A DNA stretch of 52,749 nucleotides from NCBI GenBank assembly GCA_047624725.1, contig JBLHQB010000002.1, positions 1-52,749 on the forward strand, read 5' to 3'. The notes below the pieces were generated by a model. The model saw nothing but the letters and a program-made list of their open reading frames with translations, did not search any database and was not told the origin of the DNA. Positions 44,452 through 45,910 of this stretch are shown here, piece after piece. A program made the translations under genes and the position numbers. Position 1 is the stretch's first letter. Each line of letters starts with the position of its first letter. The stretch is from Patiriisocius sp. GTDB taxonomy: Bacteria; Patescibacteriota; Minisyncoccia; Phycocordibacterales; UBA918.

Positions 44452-45910
44452 TAACTTAGAGTTTGATCCTAGCTCAGGGTGAACGCTGGCGGCGTGGATG
44501 AGGCATGCAAGTCGAATGGGTTTAGACCCATGGCAGACGAGGTAGGAACACGTAGGTACATACCCCAAAGTCAGGGATAATCCGTCGAAAGGCGGGATAA
44601 TACTTGATAGTCTCTTCGGAGTAAAAATTTATTGCTTTGGGAATGGCCTGCGTTCTATCAGCTTGTTGGTAAGGTAACGGCTTACCAAGGCTACGACGGA
44701 TAGGGGAGGTGAGAGCCTGACCCCCACCGATGGAACTGCGACACGGTCCATACTCCTACGGGAGGCCGCAGTCGAGAATCTTCCGCAATGGACGAAAGTC
44801 TGACGGAGCGACGCCGCGTGGTGGATGAAGCCCTTAGGGGCGTAAACACCTTTTATGGAGGAGGAATTTTATTGACGTTACTCCATGAATAAGGGGCTCC
44901 CAATTCTGTGCCAGCAGGAGCGGTAATACAGAAGCCTCAAGCGTTACCCGGATTCACTGGGCGTAAAGGGTTCGTAGGCGGTTATATTAGTCGGATGTTA
45001 AATCCTGAGGCTCAACCTCAGGCTCGCATTCGAAACGGTATAACTAGAAGAAGTGAGAGGTGAACAGAACTCATGGTGTAGGGGTGAAATCCGTTGATAT
45101 CATGGGGAATACCAAATGCGAAGGCAGTTCACTGGCACTTTCTTGACGCTGAGGAACGAAAGCGTGGGTAGCGAACGGGATTAGATACCCCGGTAGTCCA
45201 CGCCCTAAACGCTGTCCGCTGGTTTTTGGAGGAATCGACCCCTTCAGAGACGAAGCTAACGCATTAAGCGGACCGCCTGGGTAGTACGAGCGCAAGCTTA
45301 AAACTCAAAGGAATAGACGGGGGCTCGCACAAGCGGTGGAGCGCGTGGCTTAATTCGTCGCTAAGCGAGGAACCTTACCGAGATTAGATATCATACTGCA
45401 CGCCTACCGAAAGGTAGGAAGCCTTAGAGGGTGTATGACAGGTGATGCATGGCCGTCGTCAGTTCGTGGCTTGAGCTGTTCCCTTAAGTGGGGAAACGAA
45501 CGCAACCCTCGTTGTCTGTTACAAGTGTCAGGCGAGACTGCTCCCTCACGGGAGAGGAAGGTGAGGATGACGCCAGGTCAGCATGTCCCTAGATATCTCG
45601 GGCTGCACACACGCTACAATGGTAAGCACAACGGGACGCAATACAGTAATGTGGAGCAAATCCTTATAAAACTTGCCCCAGTTCGGATTGTGGGCTGCAA
45701 CTCGCCCACATGAAGTCGGAATCGCTAGTAATCGCGGATCAGCACGCCGCGGTGAATACGTTCCCGAGCCTTGTACTCACCGCCCGTCAAGTCAGGGGAG
45801 TCGGGAGTGCCCGAAGTCCATGCTAGTCATGGCCGACGGTAAGCTCGATAACAAGGACTAAGTCGTAACAAGGCACGGCTAGCGGAAGCTGGTCGTGGAT
45901 TAATTCCAAT
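44452..45910 (+). rRNA. rrs: 16S rRNA (short, divergent, no insertions; degenerate anti-SD tail)
   Basis: AGAGTTTGATCCTAGCTCAG at the 5' end, then ACTCCTACGGGAGGCCGCAG, GTGCCAGCAGGAGCGGTAATAC, GGATTAGATACCCCGGTAGTCC and GTCGTAACAAGG...GGATTAATTCC at the 3' end. The flanking processing stem is CTTTTGTCTTATCC (44322-44335) / GGATAAGACAAAAG (46051-46064). Confidence 0.95.

Follow-up and report, generated by a model that had tools for sequence, protein, structure and literature searches.

How does a bacterium begin translation if its only 16S rRNA gene ends without the anti-Shine-Dalgarno (anti-SD) sequence? Pairing between this sequence and a Shine-Dalgarno (SD) motif ahead of the gene is the textbook bacterial route to start codons. 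The question is raised by a 52,749-nt stretch of DNA from Patiriisocius sp. (GenBank assembly GCA_047624725.1, contig JBLHQB010000002.1, positions 1 to 52,749, forward strand), here called the window, which carries the 16S rRNA gene of the genome. Very probably, the genes of this organism are translated without SD:anti-SD pairing, the CCUCC core of the tail has been lost, and the AAGGAG sites that remain belong to an accessory gene pool. The closest relatives of a MurD-like protein were titled Ca. Kaiserbacteria, Nomurabacteria, Paceibacteria, Parcubacteria OLB19 and Patescibacteria UBA7435. The organism is a Kaiserbacteria/Nomurabacteria-like Parcubacterium without uL1 (Paceibacteria/Minisyncoccia; Candidate Phyla Radiation, CPR).

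The 16S rRNA gene gave a full-length match to the bacterial model (Rfam RF00177, window 44451-45910, + strand, model positions 1-1533, 1383.6 bits). Helix 45, CACGGCUAGC-GGAA-GCUGGUCGUG, was followed by GGAUUAAUUCCAAU where the 3' model alignment has the consensus GGAUCACCUCCUUu; the usual bacterial counterpart of this end is GGAUCACCUCCUUU. The bases equivalent to CCUCC, at 45903-45907, read AUUCC, and the GAUCA motif bound by Era reads GAUUA. The lack of the CCUCC core had been claimed in a first-pass annotation made from the letters alone, and the Rfam alignment bore it out. The same annotation had seen no CCTCC within 100 nt of the tail. On the + strand none was found in 45800-47259, that is up to 1.3 kb past the 16S gene, and the first one, at 47260, lies within an oppositely oriented gene (46401-47753). 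The spacer between the 16S and tRNA-Ile genes held no correctly oriented copy of GGATCACCTCCTT at up to three mismatches. A whole-genome search of the assembly (756 kb, 46 contigs, 85.7% complete) returned one 16S copy and no second, canonical one, and congeners that are 99-100% complete have a single copy each, with the same tail. Two marine-sediment metatranscriptomes contain the 16S rRNA, as unitigs only, and the unitigs stop at 45884, inside helix 45. One low-depth metatranscriptome contig continues to 46015; it could represent a precursor or DNA.

Conservation of the tail was determined by a BLAST search of 60 relatives with the 3' region of the 16S gene as query; it recovered 30 loci. 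The exact tail, GGATTAATTCCAATTGG, was shared by 18 further congeneric genomes. In eleven genomes that belong to the order but to other families, the tails were GGAATATTTCC, GGATTTATTCC, GGAATATTTCA, GGAATAATTCA, GGATTAATTCA, GGAATTCTTCC and similar ones. Tails of the GGAWTNNTTC type were found in 19 genomes, which lie either in other families of the order or just beyond its limits. CCUCC was absent from every tail recovered in the order. We also searched 401 genomes, sampled evenly from the phylum, for the canonical pattern of helix 45 plus CACCTCC. It was found in 196 of them, in 5 of 16 sampled from the rest of the class, and in none of 8 from the order. The variant TGGAWTNNTTC showed the opposite distribution (6/10 genomes of the order vs 2/241 other genomes of the class) and is essentially confined to the order. 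Because the identical tail recurs in 18 congeneric genomes, an assembly accident is ruled out. Judged from these sequences, the loss of the anti-SD is fixed across the whole order.

SD use was analyzed in the upstream regions of 901 genes, taken from the open reading frames (ORFs) of a greedy longest-ORF caller. In a 50-kb control from E. coli K-12, the same pipeline found SD-core tetramers at -16..-7 in 48% of genes (5.6% background), and the mean duplex energy with the canonical tail was -5.9 kcal/mol (-3.1 kcal/mol background). In our genome, the tetramers preceded 13.7% of genes (7.8% background). Duplex energies were not shifted with either tail, being -2.84 vs -3.14 kcal/mol for the canonical and -2.04 vs -2.22 kcal/mol for the organism's own, and G was depleted at -13..-1. 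Core genes were defined by comparison with the whole genome of a congener (G016, 716 kb); to reduce the noise from miscalled starts, a set of 171 orthologue pairs was retained with N-termini aligned onto a start codon in both genomes. SD-like motifs were depleted in front of core genes, to 1.1% vs 4.3% background. The first-pass annotation had proposed that most housekeeping genes lack GGAGG-like motifs and that initiation is largely independent of SD motifs. Both proposals held: the core was depleted, neither tail gave an energy shift, and the E. coli control was strongly positive.

Two explanations would keep SD pairing in place. In one, the tail is an artefact: the contig could be misassembled, the gene could be a pseudogene copy, or an intron that went unrecognised could displace the real 3' exon, which would bear CCUCC. 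The genome is indeed metagenome-assembled and 85.7% complete, and insertions are common in CPR rRNA genes; the 23S rRNA gene of this organism is itself about 600 nt longer than its model. However, the match covers the whole 16S model, with no gap where the tail aligns to positions 1521-1533. Independent assemblies of 18 congeners agree on the tail, variants of it are present in 19 more genomes, several of which are 99-100% complete, and the canonical tail was not found downstream of the 16S gene. GATCACCTCC occurs only once in the genome, on another contig and antisense to the genes around it; in the reading direction of these genes, it becomes an SD-like site, AGGAGGTGATCC, within a phage-like island. 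An artefact is therefore so improbable that we give it almost no weight. The other explanation accepts the altered tail, AAUUCCAA, and supposes that a new SD of the GGAAUU or UUGGAA type has co-evolved with it, SD-type initiation continuing on the altered motif. In favour of this, the tail still contains UUCC, which is conserved in the genus, and there is a slight GGAA bump at -10/-9. Against this, the complements of the new tail (GGAAT, GAATT, GGAATT, TGGAA, TTGGAA and AATTGG) were not enriched, or were depleted, at -20..-3. The energy of pairing with the organism's own tail was no stronger upstream of starts than in control windows, the depletion of G at -13..-1 runs the wrong way, and other families of the order have UUCA instead of UUCC. 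No motif complementary to the altered tail has evolved. With neither motif enrichment nor an energy shift, a co-evolved SD matching AAUUCCAA was rejected, and we regard it as very unlikely.

Initiation without SD pairing thus being our preferred reading, what do core genes carry instead? The most enriched hexamers at -20..-3 were TATACT and TACAAT. TANNMT had a sharp positional peak, with its first base at -12, -13 or -15, and TANNHT starting at -16..-11 preceded 26.6% of genes (9.6% background; peak at -12). By its position, this peak has the geometry predicted for a -10 box whose transcript starts at the A of ATG or 1-3 nt before it. The signal was conserved: of 116 orthologue pairs that are first in their operon, 43 had TANNNT at -18..-9 in each of the two genomes, vs 11 of 171 in an upstream control window. 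Examples from the window are given in Table 1. Core genes also had U at -1 in 66% of cases, and operon-internal core genes in 70%, vs 25% of SD-led genes, which equals background. U at -1 was equally frequent with and without a -10 box, which suggests a role in translation beyond any preference of the transcription start site. Window positions 27944, 49157 and 38678 are examples, and in the other Patescibacteria checked its frequency was 45-61%.

A large share of the mRNAs may thus be leaderless or nearly so and bound directly at a 5'-terminal AUG; this would apply to about one fifth of all genes and about one third of the first-in-operon core genes. The other genes probably have A/U-rich, unstructured leaders and may be helped by a short S1-like protein and by coupling to the upstream gene. 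An extended contact between U(-1) and A37 of the initiator tRNA is also possible. The short S1-like protein was present in 17 of 17 genomes, including this one; for bS21, this genome gave a sub-threshold match only.

Genome-wide, 87 genes had an SD-like pentamer at -16..-8, with the profile aAAGGAGaaa. These SD-led genes were rarely shared. An orthologue in G016 was found for 5 of the 87 (5.7%), vs 47.8% of the other genes (Fisher p = 2e-16). Among accessory genes, SD-like motifs were present in 16.4% (4.2% background), and in 18% of those of at least 100 amino acids. The SD-like sites listed in the first-pass annotation (13311, 15849, 16552, 16802, 32831, 38998-42641, 47888, 48651/48657 and 51817) all exist, with a start codon 5-9 nt downstream, and the ortholog counts agree with its view that such motifs cluster on accessory or hypothetical genes. 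The most prominent group in the window is the island at 38890-43768. At least two of its products (41147 and 41771) have signal-peptide-like N-termini, and no homologue of the island was found in the syntenic regions of 18 congeners. The gap between pyrH and the 16S gene, which is 5.3 kb here, measures ~650 nt in G687 and ~1.5 kb in G034, the two closest genomes. Together, these data support the view that SD sites mark a flexible, imported gene pool. The AAGGAG sites would belong to a second gene population, accessory, island-borne, partly phage-like and exchanged or imported, whose start signals may not match the host ribosome. Contamination of the bin was rejected as the source of SD-led genes, because they form short runs that alternate with core genes along shared contigs, and G+C is uniform.

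Outside the window, another contig of the genome carries a phage-like island of ~9 kb (C9:1189-9426), in which nearly all genes are SD-led. It encodes a homologue of the PurZ-like adenylosuccinate synthetase of the 2-aminoadenine pathway (C9:5130-6452; phrog_1211, E = 1e-63), as well as phrog_2971 and phrog_1735 proteins. Within this island, C9:3398-3409 reads AGGAGGTGATCC, which would pair perfectly, over 12 nt, with the canonical 16S tail absent from this organism. It is located 24 nt before the ATG of a 53-amino-acid ORF; about 0.1 such 12-mers are expected genome-wide.

Not all of these genes could be called recent arrivals. Codon usage was atypical in SD-led genes, but other accessory genes deviated at least as much. 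A three-gene TAXI cassette (C16:789-2891) had copies on metagenomic contigs at 49-80% identity, again with SD-like sites. The donor of the SD-led genes was not identified; the TAXI protein had no close relative in genomes of named species and only 11 metagenomic homologues. In a further assembly (GCA_964534895.1, CAZHQB010000012.1; locus L149:2701-12348), 14 of 14 consecutive genes had an AGGAGG-type SD, while three flanking genes had none. This block includes PP2C, a Ser/Thr kinase and a cassette of 259-amino-acid, 63-amino-acid and TAXI proteins shared with our genome, and it looks like an SD-rich mobile block. Its assembly contains no 16S gene. The simplest reading is repeated exchange among SD-rich mobile blocks. 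The first-pass annotation had suggested that residual SD motifs may mark recently imported genes. The accessory or imported part of this suggestion stood; "recently imported" is established for some islands only, and "accessory or exchanged" fits better in view of the host-like base composition and the divergent cassette homologues.

Several observations weigh against the explanation as a whole. The longest-ORF caller miscalled some gene starts, which dilutes positional signals and does not create them. In a genome that is 85.7% complete, a second 16S copy could in principle have been missed. The leaderless state is a prediction from promoter geometry, and a correctly spaced -10 box and an SD are both missing from about 60-70% of genes, whose mode of initiation the explanation does not cover. 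Finally, G+C and G+C at third codon positions (GC3) were the same in SD-led and core genes, a poor fit to fresh import with a decaying signal, and compositional evidence for import was accordingly nil. Homologues of the TAXI cassette were found in 3 of 36 congeners, all three without an anti-SD, at 31-44% identity, and they had kept their SD-like sites, which suits that picture no better.

The last two points would be expected if the AAGGAG sites of accessory genes were selected, working signals. They could be read by a factor other than 16S rRNA (an RNA-binding protein or another RNA), or the genes could also be expressed in, or shuttled through, SD-using partner or donor cells. Composition equal to that of the core is what long residents should have, and the sites of the TAXI cassette persist in homologues of 31-80% identity, the three anti-SD-less congeners included. 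The sites are correctly spaced, with a clean profile, in 16-18% of accessory genes vs 4% background, and the block in L149 has 14/14 AGGAGG-type sites vs 0/3 in the flanking genes. If true, each cell would hold two functionally separate gene pools with two start-signal regimes, one U(-1)AUG or leaderless and the other SD-led. However, the tail pairs with AAGGAG over at most 4 bp, one G.U pair included, and no candidate reader was found. The organism's own sites are more degenerate than those in L149, only 5 of the 87 SD-led genes are in the shared set, and the two nearest genomes lack one island. This rarity and the missing island are the pattern predicted by gene flow from SD-using sources. 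We consider selected sites unlikely, and we continue with the reading that SD sites label an accessory, exchanged pool in cells that initiate without SD pairing.

Did loss of the tail bring about this mode of initiation? We repeated the upstream analysis on 160-200 kb of four other genomes. G051, from the same order and without an anti-SD, had an upstream pattern like that of our genome. SD enrichment was absent both from G434, of the same class and with a canonical tail (7.3% vs 7.7% background), and from G119, of another class and with a canonical tail (8.0% vs 8.8% background), and G111 had a weak SD signal (16% vs 6% background). Since SD use is also slight or absent in Patescibacteria with an intact CCUCC, SD-independence predates the loss of the tail and reaches beyond it. 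The causal direction taken from the tail alone needs reversing: G434 and G119 keep CCUCC without SD enrichment, and SD-independence therefore came before the tail loss instead of resulting from it.

Published work reports GAUCACCUCC as the recognition sequence of Era, and also the loss of Era from most CPR (PMC10582724). A true Era GTPase was found in none of 17 Patescibacteria genomes, those with canonical GAUCACCUCC tails included (G000, which is our genome, G016, G034, G019, G051, G047, G315, G670, G046, G434, G447, G357, G183, G300, G119, G111 and G309). The search returned only GTPase-domain matches, none of which reached the cut-off apart from a single one in G309, and this resembles a Der/EngA-type protein with two GTPase domains. 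The ribosomal protein uL1 (PF00687) was present in 14 of 14 control genomes and in six Patescibacteria with canonical tails, and gave no match in our genome and eight others of the order. Two genomes of the same class, G183 and G300, lack uL1 yet keep CCUCC, and the loss of uL1 is therefore wider than that of the tail. The constraints imposed on the tail by mRNA pairing and by Era binding would have been gone before CCUCC decayed in this order. Most likely, the tail decayed under relaxed constraint once its function was lost. Because SD-independence and the absence of Era extend to lineages that keep CCUCC, the loss of the tail looks like a late consequence of that relaxation.

Other systems have parts of this arrangement. 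Bacteria rich in leaderless mRNAs include Actinobacteria (Mycobacterium), Deinococcus-Thermus and the "group C" genomes of GeneMarkS-2. They share with our genome a -10 box at a fixed short distance before start codons instead of a ribosome-binding site. They generally retain a canonical anti-SD and use SD motifs for leadered genes, whereas here the anti-SD is gone and leadered core genes also lack an SD. In the Bacteroidetes type, exemplified by Flavobacterium johnsoniae, the anti-SD is present but sequestered, and the upstream context is A-rich and Kozak-like. The genome-wide lack of SD motifs and the A-rich upstream region are common to both. G434 and G119 resemble the Bacteroidetes state, with CCUCC kept and SD tetramers (SD4) at 7-8%, the background level. 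Our genome differs from it in that the anti-SD is lost and not sequestered, U at -1 takes the place of A at -3/-6, and many genes appear to lack a leader. Mammalian mitochondrial 12S rRNA also lacks an anti-SD (PMC10582724). A small-subunit rRNA of this kind is shared with our lineage, as would be mRNAs that start at or near the AUG; unlike our lineage, mitochondria keep an Era homologue, ERAL1, and the two lineages are unrelated.

The closest counterpart is a subgroup of Parcubacteria described by Tsurumaki, Saito, Tomita and Kanai in 2022 (RNA 28:1041; PMC9297842). That paper puts the share of Parcubacteria with a detected anti-SD motif at only 48%. The lineages in which it is missing overlap the group that lacks uL1, SD helices are thought not to form there, and the functional link between these features is called unclear. 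Our genome has all three attributes of the subgroup, being of a CPR/Parcubacteria lineage, with a 16S end without CCUCCU and with uL1 lost. Anti-SD loss in this lineage is therefore real but not new, having been published there. A term search of the same text, which gives the motif detection rate, returned no "leaderless". Relative to what the text contains, our analysis adds that SD use is absent in relatives that keep CCUCC, that uL1 loss is wider than tail loss, and that core promoters are of the leaderless type while accessory islands keep SD motifs. In the searchable literature, we did not find SD disuse and Era absence despite CCUCC, leaderless-type promoters with U(-1) in the core, or SD motifs that label the accessory pool almost exclusively. 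That a whole order has a sole 16S gene without an anti-SD implies that SD pairing is dispensable. For anti-SD-less genomes, gene callers need start models other than SD, and an SD site can serve as a cheap flag for flexible or imported genes.

Table 1 Positions of the 16S rRNA elements, -10 boxes and SD-led genes in the window.
Feature	Position	Strand	Remarks
16S rRNA gene	44451-45910	+	Rfam RF00177, 1383.6 bits; sole copy in the genome; unlinked from 23S-5S
Helix 45 with GGAA loop, canonical and conserved	45874-45897	+	cmscan alignment; letters checked
16S 3' tail GGAUUAAUUCCAAU	45897-45910	+	Model alignment; identical in 18 congeners, AU-rich variants across the order
Putative -10 box TATACT, 6 nt before ATG (27945) of sugar transferase gene	27933-27938	+	Example of leaderless architecture
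Putative -10 box TACACT, 6 nt before ATG (49158) of MurD-like ligase gene	49146-49151	+	TATGAT at the same place in congeners
Putative -10 box TACAAT, 9 nt before ATG of pyrH (UMP kinase, 37982-38677)	38687-38692	-	Conserved in at least 6 congeners
Accessory island, six SD-led genes between pyrH and the 16S promoter region	38890-43768	+	Starts at 38998, 39661, 40333, 41147, 41771 and 42641
AGGAG 8 nt before ATG of CDP-alcohol phosphatidyltransferase gene	13298-13313	+	No orthologue in G016
AAGGAG 7 nt before ATG of 150-amino-acid gene without Pfam match	51804-51819	+	Absent from congener syntenic regions
AAGGAG before ATGs 48651/48657 of 115-amino-acid gene (weak cold-shock-domain match)	48643-48659	+	Absent from congener syntenic regions

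At the tail itself, a candidate mini-hairpin (45904-45914) could form between the former anti-SD bases and the next nucleotides, UUCC-AAUU-GGA here, with the equivalents UUCC-AAC-GGAA and UUCA-AUU-UGAA in loci L021-L049. With only 3-5 weak pairs, a single position that covaries, 3 of 17 lineages in which the pairing breaks down and no common register in the MAFFT alignment, a covarying hairpin is not claimed.

The rRNA genes of the window are unlinked. The 23S-5S pair, at 19135-23040, is on the same strand as the 16S gene and 21 kb upstream of it, and tRNA-Ile(GAU) stands alone at 48332-48405, 2.4 kb downstream. The 23S gene (19135-22673) is 3539 nt long, compared with the 2925 positions of its model. 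In the extra ~600 nt, Rfam called no intron at gathering thresholds, and no + strand ORF of at least 80 amino acids was found. Directly downstream of the 16S gene, the gene at 46401-47753 (- strand) encodes a protein with a T4SS-pilin domain (PF18895). In congeners, its N-terminal ~100 residues are kept (37-52% identity) and the remainder is hypervariable. At the right end of the window, a SAM riboswitch (RF00162, 53 bits) is located at 52376-52490, downstream of the SD-led gene at 51817-52269.

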